A stretch of DNA of 64,000 nucleotides from Nanobdellota archaeon (lineage in GTDB: Archaea; Nanobdellota; Nanobdellia; Parvarchaeales; Parvarchaeaceae): positions 33,187 to 97,186 of the forward strand of contig JAJYZA010000002.1 of assembly GCA_021800365.1 (NCBI GenBank), in the 5' to 3' direction. The notes under the pieces were generated by a model. It made no database searches. It was not told where the DNA came from and saw nothing but the letters and a program-made list of their open reading frames with translations. Each line of letters starts with the position of its first letter. Within the stretch, counting starts at the first letter, position 1. Shown here piece after piece: positions 618 through 31,128 of this stretch. The translations under genes were made by a program, and so were the position numbers.

Positions 618-1538
618 TTAAACAGATTTTAGACTCTCGATTTGCTGCTTTAATACACATGCTTCACATAATTCACTTGCAGCAGGTGCGCCGCATCTAG
701 TGCAAGACAATATTTTTTTATGTTTGGTTTGTAAATTTGTTTGATACAGTTTTTTTAAAGCCAACATTCTCTCGACAATATTACGCTTTGATCTGGATGA
801 AATAGATTCAAGTTCTTTTATCTTTGCAGCAACAGTGCCTCTAAATCCAAAACCCGCGTAAGGACAGGGGGTATGTAGAGCATTTATAGAGTTAATGATT
901 GAAAAAAGCATCGTTTCCTTCTCACTTATAAATAGGAAAGGTTTTATACGCGGTACAAAGCCAGTAATAGCCGCAATCCCAGACTCCGGTCCAAGCCTTA
1001 TCATCTTATCGAAGTCATTTTGAAAAAGATCCATAAGTATGTTTTCGGCTTCGTCATCCATGTTATGTGCAGTAGCCAATTTATCAGCATGGTTTTCCAG
1101 GGCGGCTGAATTAAGCATATATCGCCTAAGCACGCCGCACGCCGCACACGGGATTCCCTTTCTTATTTTAGTTAGTATATCCATAGTCACTCCCGTAAAA
1201 TCTTTATAAGAATAAGTTTTGTATTCGACACCCCATTTATTACAGTATTCTTTCATTGTATCTATTGTCTTGTCTCTATATCCTGCTATGCCTTCATCAA
1301 TCGTTATAGAAATTATTCGATTCTTTTTTAAAAAATATCTAGATAATACGTAAAGTAATGAAAGAGAGTCTTTTCCGCCGGAATTTGCTACGGCTATCGT
1401 CTCTCCTCTGCGGATTAAATTATAGTGTTTTATGGTATTTAGAGTCCTGCTTTCAAAAGTTTTTATAAAATGTTTTTTACAAAATCGTCCATTACTTGTA
1501 GAGATTATCGCATAGTCATTACAGCTTTGGCATAGCAT
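618..1538 (-). CDS. ttuA: PP-loop ATPase of the TtuA/Ncs6 family. It is a tRNA 2-thiolation enzyme with N- and C-terminal zinc fingers.
   Basis: It has an SGGKDS PP-loop motif and an N-terminal CxxC...CxxH motif. The C terminus carries CTRCGAPAASELCEAC. It sits immediately upstream of a ThiS/MoaD-like Gly-Gly protein. Confidence 0.6.
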   Translation of the reverse strand: MLCQSCNDYAIISTSNGRFCKKHFIKTFESRTLNTIKHYNLIRRGETIAVANSGGKDSLSLLYVLSRYFLKKNRIISITIDEGIAGYRDKTIDTMKEYCNKWGVEYKTYSYKDFTGVTMDILTKIRKGIPCAACGVLRRYMLNSAALENHADKLATAHNMDDEAENILMDLFQNDFDKMIRLGPESGIAAITGFVPRIKPFLFISEKETMLFSIINSINALHTPCPYAGFGFRGTVAAKIKELESISSRSKRNIVERMLALKKLYQTNLQTKHKKILSCTRCGAPAASELCEACVLKQQIESLKSV

Positions 1539-1746: not shown

Positions 1747-4059
1747 TTATTGTTTTAACCTATGGGCTCTTATAAGTACTTCGCTGTAAATAGACAGCTC
1801 TTTTGGTATCTCGATTCCAGAAATTTCGCCATTGAGTGCGAGTCCACGGCTTTTTTTTGTGCTCCAAATCATGCTATCGAATTCACATATCTTGACGATG
1901 TCTTTAGAAAAGTCTCCAGTTACCTCCTTTTTCTCAAATAACCTTTTTTTGATATCATCAGAATACAAGGTATTATAAAGATATTCAGTAAGGAATGGCG
2001 CAATCGGATTTAATAGCTCTAGAGAATTTTTTAATATGTAATTGAGTGTGTATATAACAGATTTGTTCCCTTCATAAGCAGCAGGTTTTTGTAATTCTAT
2101 ATAATGGTCTGCAAATACGCCAATTAAAAAAGTCTTTATCTCCTTTAGCGCATCAAAATATGCATAATTATCATATTGAGACACAACACGATTATAAAGC
2201 GCATCAAACGCATTCAAAAATATTTTGTCAAATATAGACAGTTCTTTGGGCATTTCGGTGTTATCTTTACCAAATATGGCCACGAATTTTGCAATATTAG
2301 AGATTTTTGTAAGTATCCGTTCGGCTTCATTAATTTTTTCTTTTGAGTATCGTATGTCTCCGTCTATTAAATTTCCTCCCAGGTATGCCCATAATCGAAT
2401 GACATCTGCTCCGTTTTCATTTAAAGCCTTCTCTATAGGTATACCGTTGCCTTTGCTTTTAGAGAATTTTTCCCCATTTTCATCTACCGCATGGTTTGTA
2501 ATCATTACTTCAACGAAAGGTTCCTTTTGTGTCAGCAAAATCGATTTAACTAACGTATAATACAACCAGGTTCTCACAATCTCTTTTCCTTGCGGTCTTA
2601 AAGAAACTGGAAAATTATGATTAAAATAGCTTTGTTTCCTTCCGTACCCAACAATAAATAAATTTGAATTACTAGAATCCATCCAGGTATCAAATATACG
2701 TCGGTCTCCCTCCAGCTCAGATCCACCGCATTTTGTACACGTTAGTCCCTTCGGTGTCTCTCGCCACGGCTCATAATATTTTCCCGTTTCTGGCACGACA
2801 TACTCTCCGCATTTCTTGCATTTCCACAATGGAATCTCGTTACCGTAATAACGTGTTCTTGATATCGGCCAGTCTCTATCCACAGAATTTATCCAGTCTA
2901 TAAGTAACTGCCTAGATGGCTCGTCATGGAATTCCATTTCCCTCGCCATTTTCAATGCCTCTTGTTTAAGTTCAACTTGTTTCAGGTAGAGTTCTTTTTC
3001 TCTTATTATTTCGACTGCGTTTTTTGATCTCCAACAGACAGGTTTTTGTGTTTTTATGCTTTTTTCTTCAGATACTACGCCAATAGTTCTTAAATCTTCA
3101 ATTATAGCCGCTCTAGCCTGTGCTATTGTCAAGCCAGAATATTTTTCGGCATCTTTAATTTTTCCATGTTCATCTATTATAAGTCGCTCTGTAAGGTGGT
3201 GTTTTCTGAATAATTCGACATCTGCTTTATCTCCGTAAGAACATACCATCATTAAACCAGTTCCAAAGTTAGGATCTATGGCTTCGTCAAAAATCAGTGG
3301 GACCTTTTTATTTGTTATTGGCATTATTGCGGTTTTTAGGTGTGAGTATCTTGTATCTGCAGGATTTGCAGCAATGGCCGCACATGCAGGTAAGAGTTCT
3401 GGGCGCGTAGTTGCAATATAGAACTCTTTATCGTCAATTTTTATGCTAAGTTTATAAAGTTTTATGTCTTTTTCTTCGTATTCGACTTCTGCGTCTGAAA
3501 GAGTGGTATGACAAACCGTGCAATAATTCACTAATTGTGTGTCTTCGTAAATCTTACCTTCTTTCCACAACTTTATGAATATCGCTTGGCCGAGTGCGCG
3601 ATATTCTGGACTATCAGTCTCATACGCACCGCCTATTTCATTGCTAGTGTTATAATCATTGAATGAGAAACCAAGTCTACGAAACACATCACGATTCTTG
3701 TCTTTATATTTATCCAAAAGCTTTTTGCAAGCATTTACATAGGTTTCTCTGTCAGTTTTTCGTATATCTATGCCGAATTCTTTTTCGGCTTGAACCTCAA
3801 TTGGTAGGCCGTTTTTATCTAGACCAAATGGGAATATAACTTCAAATCCTAGTGCGCGTTTAACCCGTGCCGTCGTATCTATGTATGTATATGCCGCGGC
3901 GTGTCCTATATGGAGATCGGCGTTTATATATGGCGGGGGCGTATCAATAGAAAATACTTTTTTCTTTACCATATCGTTTAATTTAAATGGCCATAGTTTC
4001 TCCCAGCTGCTTAAGATAGCTCCTTCTATTTCTATTCTTTCTCTAGATTTCATGCTCAC
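1747..4059 (-). CDS. valS: Class I aminoacyl-tRNA synthetase, most likely valyl-tRNA synthetase.
   Basis: It carries TPPPY..LHIGHA (a HIGH motif with a TPPP lead-in typical of ValRS). It has a KFSKSKGN (KMSKS) motif and zinc-knuckle CxxC pairs. It is 770 aa long. Confidence 0.65.
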   Translation of the reverse strand: MSMKSRERIEIEGAILSSWEKLWPFKLNDMVKKKVFSIDTPPPYINADLHIGHAAAYTYIDTTARVKRALGFEVIFPFGLDKNGLPIEVQAEKEFGIDIRKTDRETYVNACKKLLDKYKDKNRDVFRRLGFSFNDYNTSNEIGGAYETDSPEYRALGQAIFIKLWKEGKIYEDTQLVNYCTVCHTTLSDAEVEYEEKDIKLYKLSIKIDDKEFYIATTRPELLPACAAIAANPADTRYSHLKTAIMPITNKKVPLIFDEAIDPNFGTGLMMVCSYGDKADVELFRKHHLTERLIIDEHGKIKDAEKYSGLTIAQARAAIIEDLRTIGVVSEEKSIKTQKPVCWRSKNAVEIIREKELYLKQVELKQEALKMAREMEFHDEPSRQLLIDWINSVDRDWPISRTRYYGNEIPLWKCKKCGEYVVPETGKYYEPWRETPKGLTCTKCGGSELEGDRRIFDTWMDSSNSNLFIVGYGRKQSYFNHNFPVSLRPQGKEIVRTWLYYTLVKSILLTQKEPFVEVMITNHAVDENGEKFSKSKGNGIPIEKALNENGADVIRLWAYLGGNLIDGDIRYSKEKINEAERILTKISNIAKFVAIFGKDNTEMPKELSIFDKIFLNAFDALYNRVVSQYDNYAYFDALKEIKTFLIGVFADHYIELQKPAAYEGNKSVIYTLNYILKNSLELLNPIAPFLTEYLYNTLYSDDIKKRLFEKKEVTGDFSKDIVKICEFDSMIWSTKKSRGLALNGEISGIEIPKELSIYSEVLIRAHRLKQ

Positions 4060-17132: not shown

Positions 17133-17297
17133 ATCTTATAATAATTTCTTACACTTTAAATAGATTATATCGATATCTTAAGAAAATGGATTCACAACCT
17201 TTAGGTCTTTACTGTAAAAGAAGCATTAGCATAAAATGCAGGCTTAAAATCGATGGCAAATCGAAACTTTTAAATACTGAAAGTTTGTTATACTTGT

Positions 17298-18399: not shown

Positions 18400-19017
18400 A
18401 TGGAAATGGACGTTTTTGATGCAATAAATGAATTAAAGAAATTCTATGACGGCAACGGTACACTGGCTGGCCTTAAGGGCATGATTTCTGCAAAAAAATT
18501 GAATATTGATTTAGAATATCTCGATGGTGCCGTTAGACTAAGAGTATTACATCCACTTCGGCTTTACGTTGATGAGATATACAAAATTCTCCTTAGACTC
18601 TGGATAATAAATTCTATAGAAATTACCGTAGAATTTATGACAAACGGGAAGAAGAAAAGTGTCACTAAGAAGTTTGGCGCGGAAGAAAATGTAAAAGAAA
18701 CTATAGATGATCTACTCGAACTTCCGCACGAACAATTATTGGATATTATATTAGAGACAGAATATTTTAAACTTGTAGAAGTAAGAGACCTAAGTGATAC
18801 GGTCTCTATAATAATAAAAAAAGGTGATCAAAAATTACTTTTTAGGAGCCTCTATAACTATCTGTTCCCGTTTGTTAATGTACCAATCGACAAATCTGCA
18901 AAGGAAGAAATTATTTTCAACCAGGCTGGTGATGAATTAGCCGTAGACGTTTCCATATATGCAGATGGCTCGTCTGCTGGCGTTAAATCTAAAAAAGTAA
19001 AGATACTTAAAGTATGA
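18400..19017 (+). CDS. Hypothetical protein. It is the first gene of the KaiC-like/GTPase/Roadblock operon.
   Basis: It is 205 aa. Its stop overlaps the next start (ATGA), which indicates translational coupling. Confidence 0.4.
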   Translation: MEMDVFDAINELKKFYDGNGTLAGLKGMISAKKLNIDLEYLDGAVRLRVLHPLRLYVDEIYKILLRLWIINSIEITVEFMTNGKKKSVTKKFGAEENVKETIDDLLELPHEQLLDIILETEYFKLVEVRDLSDTVSIIIKKGDQKLLFRSLYNYLFPFVNVPIDKSAKEEIIFNQAGDELAVDVSIYADGSSAGVKSKKVKILKV

Positions 19018-19682
19018 GCGGAATAATGACAGGTTTTCCTTCTTTTGATAATTTAGTGTCCGGATTGGAGCCGAGAAAAACTTATCTTTTGAGCGGAAAT
19101 AAAGACAGTGGCAAGGAAGATTTCGTTTACAAGCTAACTGCATCCGCATTGAACAGAGAGATTGTCGTCGTGTACGTGACAACAAATAGGTCAAATACCG
19201 ATTTGATCATGGACTTTTCTTCTAAAGGATTAAAGTTATCACAGTATTTGGGCACTAGCATGTTAATACTTGATGATTTTATAAGAAGCGTATCCCCACA
19301 GGCAACAGATAACACGTATACAAAGGTGTTAAATGGCCCTTTAGACCTTACCGGTTTATCCGTCGCATTATCAAATGTCAACAATGGTTTTCTTAAGGAT
19401 GGAAAGACAGTACTTAATGTATTTGATTCGATATCTGCGCTCCTTCTCTATAACAATACAGTGACAATGTTTCGCTTTCTACAATTTGTATGTGGCAGAG
19501 CAAAGATATCGGGAGTAACGACGCTATTGATGCTAGATGATGAGATGCATACGCCGCAGGTCAACGAAACCATAAAATCTCTTGCGGATTCAGTAATTAC
19601 TTTAAAACTAGATGAAGGTAAAAGGTATTTTATGGTATCTGGCGGTGCAAAAGAAGTACTAAGCTGGACATCATTGCAGTGA
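19014..19682 (+). CDS. KaiC/RecA-superfamily (FlaH-like) domain protein with a degenerate Walker A.
   Basis: TGFPSFDNLVSGLEPRKTYLLSGNKDSGKEDFVYKL aligns to the KaiC TG.PGLD..LGGGLP.G...LI.G.PG.GKT region. The motif here is GNKDSGKE, so the Ser/Thr is replaced. Confidence 0.45.
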   Translation: MSGIMTGFPSFDNLVSGLEPRKTYLLSGNKDSGKEDFVYKLTASALNREIVVVYVTTNRSNTDLIMDFSSKGLKLSQYLGTSMLILDDFIRSVSPQATDNTYTKVLNGPLDLTGLSVALSNVNNGFLKDGKTVLNVFDSISALLLYNNTVTMFRFLQFVCGRAKISGVTTLLMLDDEMHTPQVNETIKSLADSVITLKLDEGKRYFMVSGGAKEVLSWTSLQ

Positions 19683-19694
19683 GCTTAAGGCGAT

Positions 19695-20912
19695 ATGGAA
19701 AAAAATAGTATAAAAAATGATCCGGTATTTGGCATAGGCAAATTAGATGAGGATTTAGAAGGCTTCCCTTATAATAAATTAGTGCTTCTGTCAGCTTCAC
19801 CCGCGGTAGGTAATGAGGTTTTTGGCTACCAAATAATCTTTAATAACCTGGCACATAAAAATAAGGTCCTTCTTTTTCTAAACAGAACTTCTCCTCAATC
19901 TTATATTACGGAGATGAAAGAGTATGATTTTAAGCCAGCTACAGATCTTGTTATAATAGACTCTTATAGCAGTGTTACGGGAATAAATGCGACTGAGACA
20001 CCGCTAAATAAGATGATAGCAAATCCCTACGATGGAACTGAAATAAAGAAAAAATTATTGGATGAACTAGACAAAAATTATGATGTTGTTGTACTAGATT
20101 CACTTTCTTTGCTTATAGATTCATTCGATTTTGATTATGTTCTATCATTGATAGGCGCGATAAAAGCGAAAATCTCAACGAAAAAATCCTCCGTCGTGAT
20201 GCTTTTCACGGATTGGGAATACGAGCAGGAGAACGTCAAGAAACTATTTACAGCAGTGAATGCACAGATAGATATAAAGGGTGTCGAAAAGAGAGTCATA
20301 TTTGGTCAATACTTCGCGGTCATAAAATGCGATTGGGTCAATAAAACTAGTTTTTCCTCAGCGTTGTTTAAGGCTATAAAACCTGGTGGGATAAAGATCT
20401 ATTTTCCAAAGATACTGATTACCGGGCCTACGGATGCAGGTAAAACTTCCTTTATACACAGTGCGTCGAAAGATGCCGTTAGCGTCGATAGGCTCGGGGG
20501 CACCATCGCACTCGATCATGGAAACCTCGATTTGGAAGGTTATAAGGCAGATTTATTCGGAACGCCCGGTCAAGAAAGATTTGACCCTCTATTGAAATTG
20601 CTTGGAGGAGAAGCCATCGGGGTAATACTAATTGTAGATTCTTCGCGGCCAGACCAATTTCCGAGGGCCATAGAGATGCTTAGAAAGACGGAAACCTACG
20701 GATTACCAATAGTAGTCGTTGCAAACAAAGCCGATCTTCCGAACGCATTACCTCTGGAAGAATTGAGAGAAAAGCTACATCTCGGCAAAGACGCACCACT
20801 AGTTGCCACTGTAGCGGAAGACCTATCCAAAATCGATCCAAATGAACCGACTAAGTTAAAAGAGAAGGGGGTGCGTGAGGCATTGATGGCTTTGTTTAAG
20901 CAATTGACATAA
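19695..20912 (+). CDS. Fusion of a degenerate KaiC/RecA-like domain (N-terminal) and an MglA/Ras-like small GTPase (C-terminal).
   Basis: The N-terminal half resembles KaiC (LVLLSASPAVGNEVFGYQI) but lacks a P-loop. The C-terminal half has G1 ILITGPTDAGKTS, a switch-I Thr in GGTIALD, a G3 of FGTPGQ, and a G4 of VANKADL. The G3 is of the TxPGQ type, as in MglA. Confidence 0.5.
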   Translation: MEKNSIKNDPVFGIGKLDEDLEGFPYNKLVLLSASPAVGNEVFGYQIIFNNLAHKNKVLLFLNRTSPQSYITEMKEYDFKPATDLVIIDSYSSVTGINATETPLNKMIANPYDGTEIKKKLLDELDKNYDVVVLDSLSLLIDSFDFDYVLSLIGAIKAKISTKKSSVVMLFTDWEYEQENVKKLFTAVNAQIDIKGVEKRVIFGQYFAVIKCDWVNKTSFSSALFKAIKPGGIKIYFPKILITGPTDAGKTSFIHSASKDAVSVDRLGGTIALDHGNLDLEGYKADLFGTPGQERFDPLLKLLGGEAIGVILIVDSSRPDQFPRAIEMLRKTETYGLPIVVVANKADLPNALPLEELREKLHLGKDAPLVATVAEDLSKIDPNEPTKLKEKGVREALMALFKQLT

Positions 20913-20944
20913 TGCTTAAATTAGGCAGGGGTTATAAATAGCTT

Positions 20945-21322
20945 ATGGCTACAAAATCAGATGCTTTGAGACTGGTGTTAGAAGGTTTGGGTAATGTAGG
21001 TGGCATACGCGCCTCCGCGATAATATCAGTGGACGGTCTTCCGATGGTATCCCTAATGCCACAGGATGTAGATCCCAACAACTTTGCTGCAATGCTAGCG
21101 TCAATGGTAGGTGCGGCTGAAACTGCGCTGAAATCTCTTGGCTCCAAAAATATCTTAGATCGAGTTGTAGCCGAATCAAAAGATGTGAGAGTAATTGCCG
21201 TAAAGGCCGGTGAAGATACTATACTTACCATTATGATAGACCCAAATACTAATTATGGCTTGGTGCTTCTCGAAGCGAAAAAAGCTTCTGATGAAATTGC
21301 AAAGATAATGAAAGGGCAATAA
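20945..21322 (+). CDS. Roadblock/LC7 (MglB-like) domain protein.
   Basis: It is 125 aa. It has the GIRASAIISVDGLPMVS and TIMIDPNTNYGLVLLEAK pattern typical of Roadblock/LC7 proteins. It lies directly downstream of the small GTPase gene. Confidence 0.5.
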   Translation: MATKSDALRLVLEGLGNVGGIRASAIISVDGLPMVSLMPQDVDPNNFAAMLASMVGAAETALKSLGSKNILDRVVAESKDVRVIAVKAGEDTILTIMIDPNTNYGLVLLEAKKASDEIAKIMKGQ

Positions 21323-28825: not shown

Positions 28826-29230
28826 ATGGCAATCGGGAATATAGAAAGAAAATATAAGATAAAAGGTGAAGTTGCATACTTAAATAAACTAGATGGTACA
28901 GTCCGTATAAACGCGCTGGATAATGGGAATATTAGCGAAGTTACCCTAGAAAAAATTTTGAATGACCCTCTAGATGCAACTAACTATCCGGATGTCGCGT
29001 ATTTTCCGGCTTTATCAGCAGTAGGGGAAAAGTTACACTTGAGTTATAGCCAGTTTCTTTTTTGTTTAACCGAATCTGATGACGCAGCAAGGCAGAGAGG
29101 GGCAACAAAAGAAGTCGGTTTAAATAAGGCGTCTTCGGCTATAGGTTTTATTAGGAGATATGCGGACCTTTCTCAAAAAGATATGGAATTACTCAATACC
29201 GCACTTAAAGTGTATAGAATTAAAAAATAA
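28826..29230 (+). CDS. Hypothetical protein.
   Basis: It is a 134-aa ORF. Confidence 0.3.
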   Translation: MAIGNIERKYKIKGEVAYLNKLDGTVRINALDNGNISEVTLEKILNDPLDATNYPDVAYFPALSAVGEKLHLSYSQFLFCLTESDDAARQRGATKEVGLNKASSAIGFIRRYADLSQKDMELLNTALKVYRIKK

Positions 29231-29277
29231 AAACACCTCTGCGTGCAATTTATAAATCTAATTTGTCTTATTCTACT

Positions 29278-29355
29278 ATGGATAAAAAAGAAAAGACCAA
29301 AAAACAAACTGAATCTAAAGATGATTCGTGTAATTGTGGTTGCGGCTGTTGCTGA
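29278..29355 (+). CDS. Micro-ORF encoding a 25-aa Lys-rich peptide with a C-terminal Cys cluster (MDKKEKTKKQTESKDDSCNCGCGCC).
   Basis: The frame runs from ATG at 29278 to TGA at 29353-29355. It is below the ORF-track size cut-off. Five Cys fall in the last eight residues. Confidence 0.3.
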   Translation: MDKKEKTKKQTESKDDSCNCGCGCC

Positions 29356-29599
29356 AAGAAAAAAAGAAGTGTAAGTGTAATTAACTTCTAAGCAATTATA
29401 GCTTAGTCTAGCTTGGCATTGTCTTTGAATGCATAAACCTTACTAAATTTTAGTTTTTAATAACCTCTTCTCAGCGCATTATTAAAGCAAGACTAGCTGC
29501 AAATTATACAAAAAGTTACTAGTGTGCATCGCAAAATGTTATCTTAACAATGAATGGCGTGTGTGCTTAATCTAACTTTTAATGGCCTTTGGTCTTATT

Positions 29600-30286
29600 T
29601 TATGGCGGATTTATTAAGTGTTGTGTCAAAGCGCCACCCCCAACCACCAACGCTAAAATTGTAGACGCCGCAGCGAATAATAAAAACAGAACAAAACTAG
29701 TAAAAATTAATTTCCATTGAAAGCCGACCAGTTTGTTTGTTTTTGAGGGGCCTTTGTTGCTCGAGTGCAAATTTATAATCATGTTATCTATGAATACTGT
29801 TATTGGAAAAGTTAAGATTGCAGTAAAACCAAATGCAACATATAACAATAAAGTGACAAGCGGCTCAGTGGTTAATCCAAAACTATACGCATTAACACCA
29901 TAGTAAACACTCAATGCACCCGTGATCACAGCAAGTAATCCGATATAACGCGTGTTTAGATTTAGCATTACAGAAGCAGAAAAACCTACTAACACAATTC
30001 CTAGCATTAGGTAAGGATCATAAAATAAAATATTATATGCTCCGAGAACATTCGTACCATTAACAATCGTCGTTAACGGCCAATTTAATTCCCCCCAGAG
30101 GCCTATACCTAAAATAACAATACCAATTACCCCGAGCACAAGCACTTGCGACTTTAGATATTGATAAACCGTACGAGCGCCTTTTTTAAAATAAGTCAAA
30201 TAATCACTTATTCCCGAATAAAATAGCAGAGCCGAGACAAATGCAAGAGTAAAAAGTTGGAATGCCAGTGGGTCTATAAATGTCAT
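29600..30286 (-). CDS. Polytopic integral membrane protein.
   Basis: It is 228 aa with six to seven hydrophobic helices. Confidence 0.4.
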   Translation of the reverse strand: MTFIDPLAFQLFTLAFVSALLFYSGISDYLTYFKKGARTVYQYLKSQVLVLGVIGIVILGIGLWGELNWPLTTIVNGTNVLGAYNILFYDPYLMLGIVLVGFSASVMLNLNTRYIGLLAVITGALSVYYGVNAYSFGLTTEPLVTLLLYVAFGFTAILTFPITVFIDNMIINLHSSNKGPSKTNKLVGFQWKLIFTSFVLFLLFAAASTILALVVGGGALTQHLINPP

Positions 30287-30370
30287 ATTATGCTTATGGC
30301 GTTTGGTTTATTCTTATAATTTAAGTCTTTTGGTATATTTAACACTTTATCCAATCGTATTGCTATAACG

Positions 30371-30445
30371 TGGGGCAGCTGGGATTTGAACCCAGGACAG
30401 CGTGAGCCCTAGTCACGCATCATAACCAAGCTAGATCACCGCCCC
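30371..30445 (-). tRNA. tRNA-Pro. The anticodon loop CTAGGGC reads AGG at positions 34-36. CCA is not encoded.
   Basis: The sense sequence is GGGGCGG-TG-ATCT-AGCTTGGTTA-TGAT-G-CGTGA-CTAGGGC-TCACG-CTGTC-CTGGG-TTCAAAT-CCCAG-CTGCCCC-A. It is 75 nt with a canonical cloverleaf. Confidence 0.75.
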
Positions 30446-30726: not shown

Positions 30727-31128
30727 ATGGTCCAAAAAACTAAAATATATTTGCACAAAAAACACATCTCATCTAAAAAACTATCATTAGAAAGGCACAT
30801 AAACGTGCTTAGAAAAGCTTCTCACGAGAGGGACCTCCATCACATGATTCGGCTTATGGGTGTACTTTTCCCGCTGAAGCGCGATAAAGATACAAAAAAA
30901 TCATTGGAAGCCCTGTCGGCCCTGGCAAAGAAGAAGGGATTTGAAGGACTGTACGGTATACTACAGGCGCTTCTTGCAGAGAGTTTAAGTTCCAATAGAT
31001 TACAGAAAGTATCTGAAACTGCGATATCCATGTTTAAAGCAGAATCTGGTGTAGACATAATCGGTAAATCTATCAAAAAGCATTCTAGTCCGAAGAACGG
31101 CGTTGGTAGTCTACTGCGTAAGTTGTAG
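30727..31128 (+). CDS. Hypothetical protein.
   Basis: It is a 133-aa basic protein. Confidence 0.3.
   Translation: MVQKTKIYLHKKHISSKKLSLERHINVLRKASHERDLHHMIRLMGVLFPLKRDKDTKKSLEALSALAKKKGFEGLYGILQALLAESLSSNRLQKVSETAISMFKAESGVDIIGKSIKKHSSPKNGVGSLLRKL

Follow-up and report, generated by a model that had tools for sequence, protein, structure and literature searches.

A 25-codon open reading frame (ORF) whose product ends in a cluster of cysteines was found between two convergent genes in a 64,000-nt stretch of DNA (the window) from an uncultured Nanobdellota archaeon. Judged from its sequence, this micro-ORF may be a genuine, unannotated, monocistronic leaderless gene encoding a metallothionein-like thiolate peptide, and this is the reading that we tentatively prefer. 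Almost as likely is that the ORF arose by chance over a conserved non-coding element. As the basis of the micro-gene consists of one truncated orthologue and the promoter geometry, the evidence for it is suggestive only. The complete interpretation, i.e., a translated, leaderless, 25-residue minimal metallothionein-like peptide in an uncultured archaeon of a probably metal-rich acidic habitat, is doubtful. The features of the locus are as follows, with positions counted from the first letter of the window.

29249..29256, plus strand: TATA box TTTATAAA, a palindrome that starts 29 nt before the ATG
29278..29355, plus strand: micro-ORF of 25 codons and TGA with the product MDKKEKTKKQTESKDDSCNCGCGCC, the proposed leaderless small gene
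29329..29352, plus strand: Cys tail CNCGCGCC, the only 5-of-8 Cys stretch in six frames
29334..29380, no strand assigned: block conserved in the related contig L077 (5615..5570, minus strand), which runs from the last ~7 codons through the stop into ~25 nt of 3' flank
29356..29370, minus strand: A-rich run reading CTTCTTTTTTTCTTT on the minus strand, resembling an oligo-T terminator for the convergent gene
29448..29458, plus strand: oligo-T tract TTTTAGTTTTT, the first after the ORF and the putative 3' end of a ~180-nt transcript

The micro-ORF opens with the ATG at 29278 and closes with the TGA at 29353-29355, and the coordinates and the 25-residue translation (MDKKEKTKKQTESKDDSCNCGCGCC) of the preliminary description were exact. 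The gap between the convergent genes, given there as 370 nt, measured 369 nt. It is flanked by the gene of a hypothetical protein of 134 aa (hyp134; 28826..29230, plus strand) and by the convergent gene of a DUF981 membrane protein (29600..30286, minus strand). The stop of hyp134 lies 48 nt upstream of the micro-ORF on the same strand and in another frame, and the stop-to-stop frame around the micro-ORF comprises 43 codons. The gap is among the longest spacers of the window and, unlike several other spacers, has no tRNA inside. Such a length is unusual for convergent genes of a compact genome and was counted in favor of a micro-gene. The same gap carries several ORFs of 30-43 codons; therefore, the length of the micro-ORF alone is not significant.

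The product was described as a Lys-rich peptide with a strongly basic N-terminal half. Lys-rich was appropriate, while strongly basic was not, since six K stand against three D and two E and the whole peptide has a computed pI of 7.6; the basic part is confined to residues 1-11 (computed pI 9.8). The count of five Cys among the final eight residues was right. Descriptive criteria for metallothioneins were set out by Binz and Kagi and are summarised in PMC4755600. The peptide has the low mass expected of a metallothionein (25 residues, 2.77 kDa). Cys accounts for five of the 25 residues (20%), in three CxC and one CC, and F, Y, W and H are absent. All Cys lie within the last eight residues, which is atypical for a metallothionein, and no sequence relationship to an established metallothionein family was found in NCBIfam, the PDB and two protein collections.

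The upstream regions of the first genes in the window showed no Shine-Dalgarno sequence and carried TTTAAATA or a TTTATA-type box instead, and these first genes are mostly leaderless. The 15 nt before the ATG of the micro-ORF likewise contained no Shine-Dalgarno-like sequence, as had been described. Since leaderless genes with a TATA box prevail among the first genes of the window, this absence is normal for the micro-ORF and not a weakness. The start context ATGGAT is also common to the micro-ORF and other leaderless genes of the window. A position weight matrix (PWM) of the TATA box was trained on 31 gene upstreams of the window and gave a modal box start of -29, the same position as before the micro-ORF. 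With this PWM the box of the micro-ORF scored 8.15 bits, a value reached or exceeded at six of 2016 non-gene ATGs (0.3%), at four of 164 intergenic ATGs and at 10% of the true gene starts.

If the ORF arose by chance, the TATA-like palindrome would be incidental in a genome with 62% A+T (the G+C content of the window is 37.6%). In agreement with this, about 0.6 intergenic ATGs per window are expected, by a rough estimate, to combine a good TATA score with at least 25 open codons. The box is perfectly palindromic and the BRE/flank scores fit neither orientation, which also counts for a chance ORF. On the other hand, the densest Cys cluster in the 64 kb and one of the six best-placed TATA boxes occur at the same locus, which argues for a gene. 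The intergenic ATGs at 17186 (plus), 608 (plus) and 578 (minus) also have a TATA box at -29 to -31, with scores of 8.0-9.1 bits. They open ORFs of 49, 30 and 15 codons, respectively, the product of the first beginning with MDSQPLGLYCKRSISIKCRLK, and may be additional small leaderless genes that escaped annotation, or else alternative starts.

Transcription of the micro-ORF would start from the A of the ATG or a neighboring nucleotide, driven by the TATA box at -29. Archaea use oligo-T terminators, and by analogy the transcript may end at 29448-29458, where an oligo-T tract occurs ~100 nt past the stop and ahead of the convergent gene. The product would be a leaderless mRNA of ~180 nt ending near 29455. 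The T7 run on the minus strand, located 234 nt after the DUF981 stop, is by its sequence a plausible terminator of the convergent gene. A scan for bacterial-type promoters and terminators detected no hairpin terminator and nothing else relevant at the locus, as expected for an archaeon. With Rfam 15, the best scores at the locus were 12-17 bits against gathering thresholds of 34-62 bits (E >= 1.4), so that no match rose above noise, and the predicted fold of the putative 188-nt transcript was no better than that of shuffled sequences (z = -0.41). Based on these two results, a structured RNA is not an obvious alternative.

Nevertheless, the TATA box could drive a small non-coding RNA in one direction or the other, and the ORF would be irrelevant. 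A promoter-like element and a conserved block within an otherwise unalignable spacer would agree with such an RNA, and a palindromic TATA box could fire both ways. The negative Rfam and folding results contradict it, the conserved part is only ~47 nt long, and, as is known from leaderless translation in Archaea, an AUG at the 5' end of an archaeal RNA by itself signals the start of translation. Altogether, a non-coding RNA appears quite improbable.

The conservation of the micro-ORF was analyzed in a single moderately diverged relative, the 5.6-kb contig ENA ERZ27233573 k141_874417 (L077). Amino acid identities between L077 and the window were 86% for GatE, 81% for the hypothetical protein hyp161, 74% for a methyltransferase and 73-74% for the DUF981 protein (73.5% by tblastn and 74.4% by global alignment), and the gene order GatE, methyltransferase, hyp161, small ORF, tRNA-Pro and DUF981 is kept. 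After DUF981, L077 carries a 2-hydroxyacid dehydrogenase gene that is absent from the window, and the locus is thus a synteny breakpoint. Nothing convincing as a remnant of this gene was detected in the gap of the window. The end of the ORF in L077 is located ~50 nt past the dehydrogenase stop on the opposite strand, and the window and L077 agree in its orientation relative to DUF981.

Blastn analysis revealed the conserved block as an alignment of 47 nt with 85% identity (E = 3e-8). The third codon positions of four genes shared by the window and L077 are only 57% identical, and most of the intergenic DNA is unalignable; the block is therefore under constraint. The L077 tail reads AAT TGT GGT TGT GGC TGC GGC CGT TGC TGA (NCGCGCGRC and stop), with the frame open and the TGA in the same place. 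The only 1-nt indel of the block falls after the stop, which together with the open frame and the shared TGA would suit a coding role. The overlapping +1 frame, which in the window reads IVVAAVAERKKEV followed by a stop, has lost this stop in L077, and the window has no minus-strand ORF across the Cys codons. The terminal Cys-Cys is Arg-Cys in L077 and four of the five Cys are kept; depending on the alignment, the two tails differ by a 6-nt repeat-unit indel or by an Asn-to-Gly change. Conservation, which the preliminary description had proposed to check, was seen for the end, the frame and the stop of the micro-ORF and not for Cys-Cys, in a comparison limited to the last nine codons, as the start and the N-terminal half would lie beyond the end of the L077 contig.

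The 3' flank (~78% identity) and the coding tail (85-92%, both values depending on the alignment) are about equally conserved, so the constraint may not be on the peptide. It may instead be that the frame occurs by chance over a TGYGGY repeat, that the 47-nt block belongs to the convergent gene as its 3' end or terminator, or is another DNA or RNA signal, and that no peptide is made. We regard this as a serious possibility, slightly behind the preferred one. In support of it, the 3' flank that is conserved like the coding tail contains the minus-strand T7, and in L077 it is found just after the dehydrogenase stop, the counterpart of the A-rich/T-run stretch being placed ~25-50 nt after this convergent stop. 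That the Cys-Cys end is not conserved points in the same direction. On the contrary, the conservation runs ~22 nt beyond the T-run into the Cys codons, which would be superfluous for a terminator, and the frame and stop are kept with the sole frame-breaking indel outside the ORF.

Because the L077 contig stops inside the ORF, after nine codons, the ORF could also be the end of a longer gene. The micro-ORF would then be what is left of a gene for a normal-sized protein with a Cys-rich C-terminal tail, or the real 3' end of such a gene, perhaps once joined to hyp134, and the window would keep only the decayed or frameshifted end. The proximity of hyp134, an orphan gene of the same strand whose stop lies 48 nt before the micro-ORF, and the synteny breakpoint with its dehydrogenase in L077 are compatible with this origin. 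But hyp134 is in another frame and a well-placed TATA box separates it from the ATG, the stop-to-stop frame has only 43 codons, and the ORF is intact in all eight near-identical strains described below. The chance that a longer gene accounts for the micro-ORF is therefore slim.

In the 64 kb, read in six frames, the tail of the micro-ORF was the only stretch of eight codons with at least five Cys, and only 5% of the 64-kb sequences simulated with a second-order Markov model contained such a stretch, a rarity that was counted in favor of a micro-gene. The DNA of the Cys tail is TGT AAT (TGT GGT)(TGC GGC) TGT TGC, a short TGYGGY hexanucleotide repeat whose units differ from each other solely at third codon positions (synonymous changes), as would suit a coding role. 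In viral contigs, the DNA pattern of CxCGCGCC plus stop had 58 matches, nearly all of them meaningless frames of TGYGGY-type repeats, indicating that Cys-tail "peptides" arise easily from low-complexity DNA; the pattern CNCGCGC, with more than 120 matches, was too unspecific. A chance ORF is favored by this ready appearance of frames ending in CGCGCC in low-complexity DNA.

The codon log-likelihood per codon of the micro-ORF (+0.06) was intermediate between those of genes (+0.29) and spurious ORFs (-0.07), and 25% of the spurious ORFs scored as high, which again is in accordance with a chance ORF. The first 17 codons were strongly gene-like in their usage, in conflict with a chance ORF, and the mean is pulled down because Cys codons are rare in the genome (~0.8% of codons). 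The proposal of a real micro-gene below the usual size cut-offs gained support from the TATA box at the modal -29 and from the conserved 3' end, frame and stop in L077; the codon statistics were neutral.

The strain of the window is present in the ENA, JGI, Logan and NCBI assemblies. In eight contigs of the same organism (L001-L008) the ORF was intact, and the gene calls omit it. Strain SNPs in the gap were located outside the ORF, at 29407, 29423 and 29543. Since these contigs are at least 99.8% identical, the strain comparison is uninformative. The JGI metagenome contig 3300039716 Ga0438459_0000027 carries the locus of the window. Ten DUF981 loci from GTDB genomes (34-61% identity, four at 54-61% and six at 34-36%) displayed neither synteny nor a Cys-tailed micro-ORF, and the same was true for L078, L079 and L200-L204.

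No record of the micro-ORF as a called gene was found. The 43-aa stop-to-stop query had no word-sharing candidate in 5.8 billion protein clusters, and a 30-aa version with a TTG start had no match by HMMER in 1.84 billion representative proteins. This lack of homologues in the protein collections searched is also expected for a chance ORF. The peptide had no match in the PDB, and no NCBIfam family, RiPP precursor families included, was obtained at E <= 1. A search of a metagenome contig collection for the exact L077 tail gave no match, and the collection apparently also lacks the contig of the window itself. Likewise, the pattern M-[D/E]-K...CNCGCGC had no match there, and the locus's own JGI contig was missed too, which renders such nulls from this collection uninformative.

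Metallothionein-like metal binding would fit the peptide in its composition only. One of the closest likenesses was to the metallothionein (MT) of Neurospora crassa, a fungal family-8 copper metallothionein of 26 aa, MGDCGCSGASSCNCGSGCSCSNCGSK (PMC4755600). Both are of similar length (25 and 26 residues), contain no aromatic residues and no His, and have Cys-x-Cys motifs with Gly, Ser and Asn as spacers. The stretch SCNCGCGC of the peptide matches SCNCGSGC of the N. crassa Cu-thionein in seven of eight residues (PMC4755600). Unlike the N. crassa MT, which has seven Cys, the peptide has five, all in the last eight residues and with a Cys-Cys end, and it contains a Cys-free, highly charged N-terminal part of 17 residues and comes from an archaeal host. 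No sequence search in NCBIfam, the PDB and the two protein collections linked the peptide to this MT, and the 7/8 match of a low-complexity stretch most likely reflects convergence.

Two other groups of proteins offer partial parallels. Metallochaperones bind soft metal ions and pass them on with Cys motifs at their termini, such as the CxxCGC N-terminus of Escherichia coli HypB and the vicinal Cys pairs in the tails of ArsD and MerA. The peptide resembles them in its short, unstructured and tightly spaced Cys motif at the chain end. However, those motifs sit on full-size enzymes or chaperones, while the peptide consists of nearly the motif alone and no partner gene is evident. The C(P)XCG zinc-finger micro-proteins of Haloferax volcanii, e.g., HVO_0758 (PMC10716476), are also archaeal, shorter than 70 aa and often leaderless and under-annotated, and function through Cys-bound metal, as proposed here for the peptide. 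They form two CPxCG knuckles around one Zn, whereas the tail of the peptide lacks such spacing and is unable to form a zinc ribbon.

Translation of the micro-ORF would yield a 2.8-kDa peptide whose N-terminal two thirds are predicted to be disordered, highly charged and soluble, with Lys, Asp and Glu. The last eight residues would offer five thiols with Cys-x-Cys and Cys-Cys spacing, which probably leaves too little room for a zinc finger or a cubane Fe-S site. Thiolate clusters might form with soft ions, e.g., Cu(I), Zn/Cd(II), As(III) or Hg(II), as in metallothioneins and metallochaperone tails. The small peptide would most likely serve in the cytosol to buffer or carry metals or thiols and may be oligomeric.

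Translation itself, rather than the product, could also be what matters if the micro-ORF is a Cys-sensing leaderless small ORF (sORF), at whose Cys codons the ribosome pauses when charged tRNA-Cys is scarce; for example, it might control plus-strand read-through into the convergent gene as antisense RNA. The polycysteine leaderless sORFs of mycobacteria (Ms5788A and others) are cysteine-responsive attenuators (bioRxiv 10.1101/834739). Like these, the micro-ORF is unannotated, predicted to be leaderless, rich in Cys codons at its 3' end and missed by pipelines, and both this architecture and the rarity of Cys in the genome favor a sensor. The change in Cys-Gly repeat number between the relatives would be tolerable for a sensor. 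The mycobacterial sORFs are followed by operons of cysteine metabolism read in the same direction, and they pair with the ribosome-binding site that lies downstream (bioRxiv 10.1101/834739). In contrast, the gene following the micro-ORF is convergent both in the window (DUF981) and in L077 (dehydrogenase), no cysteine-metabolism gene was detected within ~13 kb, and no RNA duplex or stable RNA structure was predicted for the transcript. The key feature of a mycobacterial-type attenuator is therefore lacking, as there is no co-directional downstream gene. The Cys codons of the micro-ORF alternate with those of Gly or Asn, while those of the mycobacterial sORFs are consecutive, and the only consecutive Cys codons are not kept in L077 (Arg-Cys). 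A further objection is the oligo-T tract, which a transcript would reach ~100 nt past the stop, ahead of the convergent gene. We consider a Cys sensor improbable.

The preliminary description had also suggested a small Cys-rich antimicrobial or RiPP-like precursor and a redox sensor peptide. A RiPP precursor would comprise a charged N-terminal leader and the core SCNCGCGCC, a layout similar to that of methanobactin and ranthipeptide precursors, in which a leader is followed by a Cys-rich core. Pfam analysis of 30 neighboring proteins (16.3-45.5 kb, ~13 kb on either side) identified no radical-SAM, YcaO, lanthipeptide-synthetase, DUF692 or peptidase/exporter genes, so the nearby modification enzymes that the description had proposed to look for were not present in this region. 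Without a maturase gene in the scanned neighborhood a RiPP is a weak reading. Neither was a precursor family matched in NCBIfam, and the adjacent hyp134 is an orphan with a pLDDT of 51. A RiPP or antimicrobial precursor is thus disfavored, and its likelihood is very small. The redox sensor gained no support either; the neighboring TrxR-like flavoprotein has no CxxC.

The window encodes GatD/GatE, FtsZ, ThrRS, malate dehydrogenase, malic enzyme and an FNR-type flavoprotein, which is the TrxR-like protein mentioned above. This gene content identifies the host as an archaeon. Neither a metal-resistance operon nor cysteine-biosynthesis or -metabolism genes were detected by Pfam within ~13 kb of the micro-ORF, and the sole metal-related neighbor was a VIT1-family gene located 12 kb away. 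Thus, no gene of metal homeostasis adjoins the micro-ORF, a point against the preferred reading. The upstream gene hyp134 has its own TATA box at -29. Its product found no homologue but itself in the 5.8 billion protein clusters, and its single-sequence AlphaFold model was unusable for a fold search. Among species-representative genomes, the nearest DUF981 proteins (54-61% identity) came from MAGs labelled Micrarchaeota, Marsarchaeota, Thermoplasmata and Nitrososphaerales. The isolate names of these DUF981-bearing MAGs are presumably those of acid-mine-drainage sediment bins, which suggests a metal-rich habitat.

We know of no archaeal protein of the metallothionein type that has been characterised, nor of a standard gene caller that does not remove peptides shorter than 30 residues. 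If real, the micro-ORF would encode a small Cys-rich metal-binding peptide in a lineage and size class with none described. Few genetically encoded peptides of prokaryotes that bind metal would be smaller, and it would found an archaeal family invisible to gene callers. If the peptide is made and binds metal, its soluble charged handle and five-thiol tail would represent a minimal design by which an archaeon with a small genome buffers metals or thiols. The peptide would also be a concrete target for metaproteomics in samples containing the organism and would argue for searches based on promoter geometry for leaderless micro-genes in archaeal MAGs. If the peptide is not made, the locus is a caution that TGYGGY repeats mimic Cys-rich peptides.

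Some other observations were made in the window. A 133-aa ORF (30727..31128, plus strand) between hyp161 and the hypothetical gene hyp77 had no DNA or protein match in the syntenic region of L077 (2913..3250) and is either lineage-specific or not a gene. The tRNA-Pro beside DUF981 (30370..30445, minus strand) has the anticodon AGG (A34, loop CUAGGGC). The same AGG anticodon is present in its L077 orthologue (3445..3519), and another relative, L078, carries a tRNA-Leu(AAG) at 1393..1475. As far as we know, such A34 tRNAs typically occur in eukaryotes, where they serve I34 decoding, and are not expected in Archaea. The region 19014..21322 (plus strand) encodes, one after the other, a KaiC-like ATPase, a fusion of a KaiC-like domain with a small Ras/Arf-like GTPase domain and a Roadblock/LC7 protein; in this archaeon these make up an MglA/MglB-like GTPase module.
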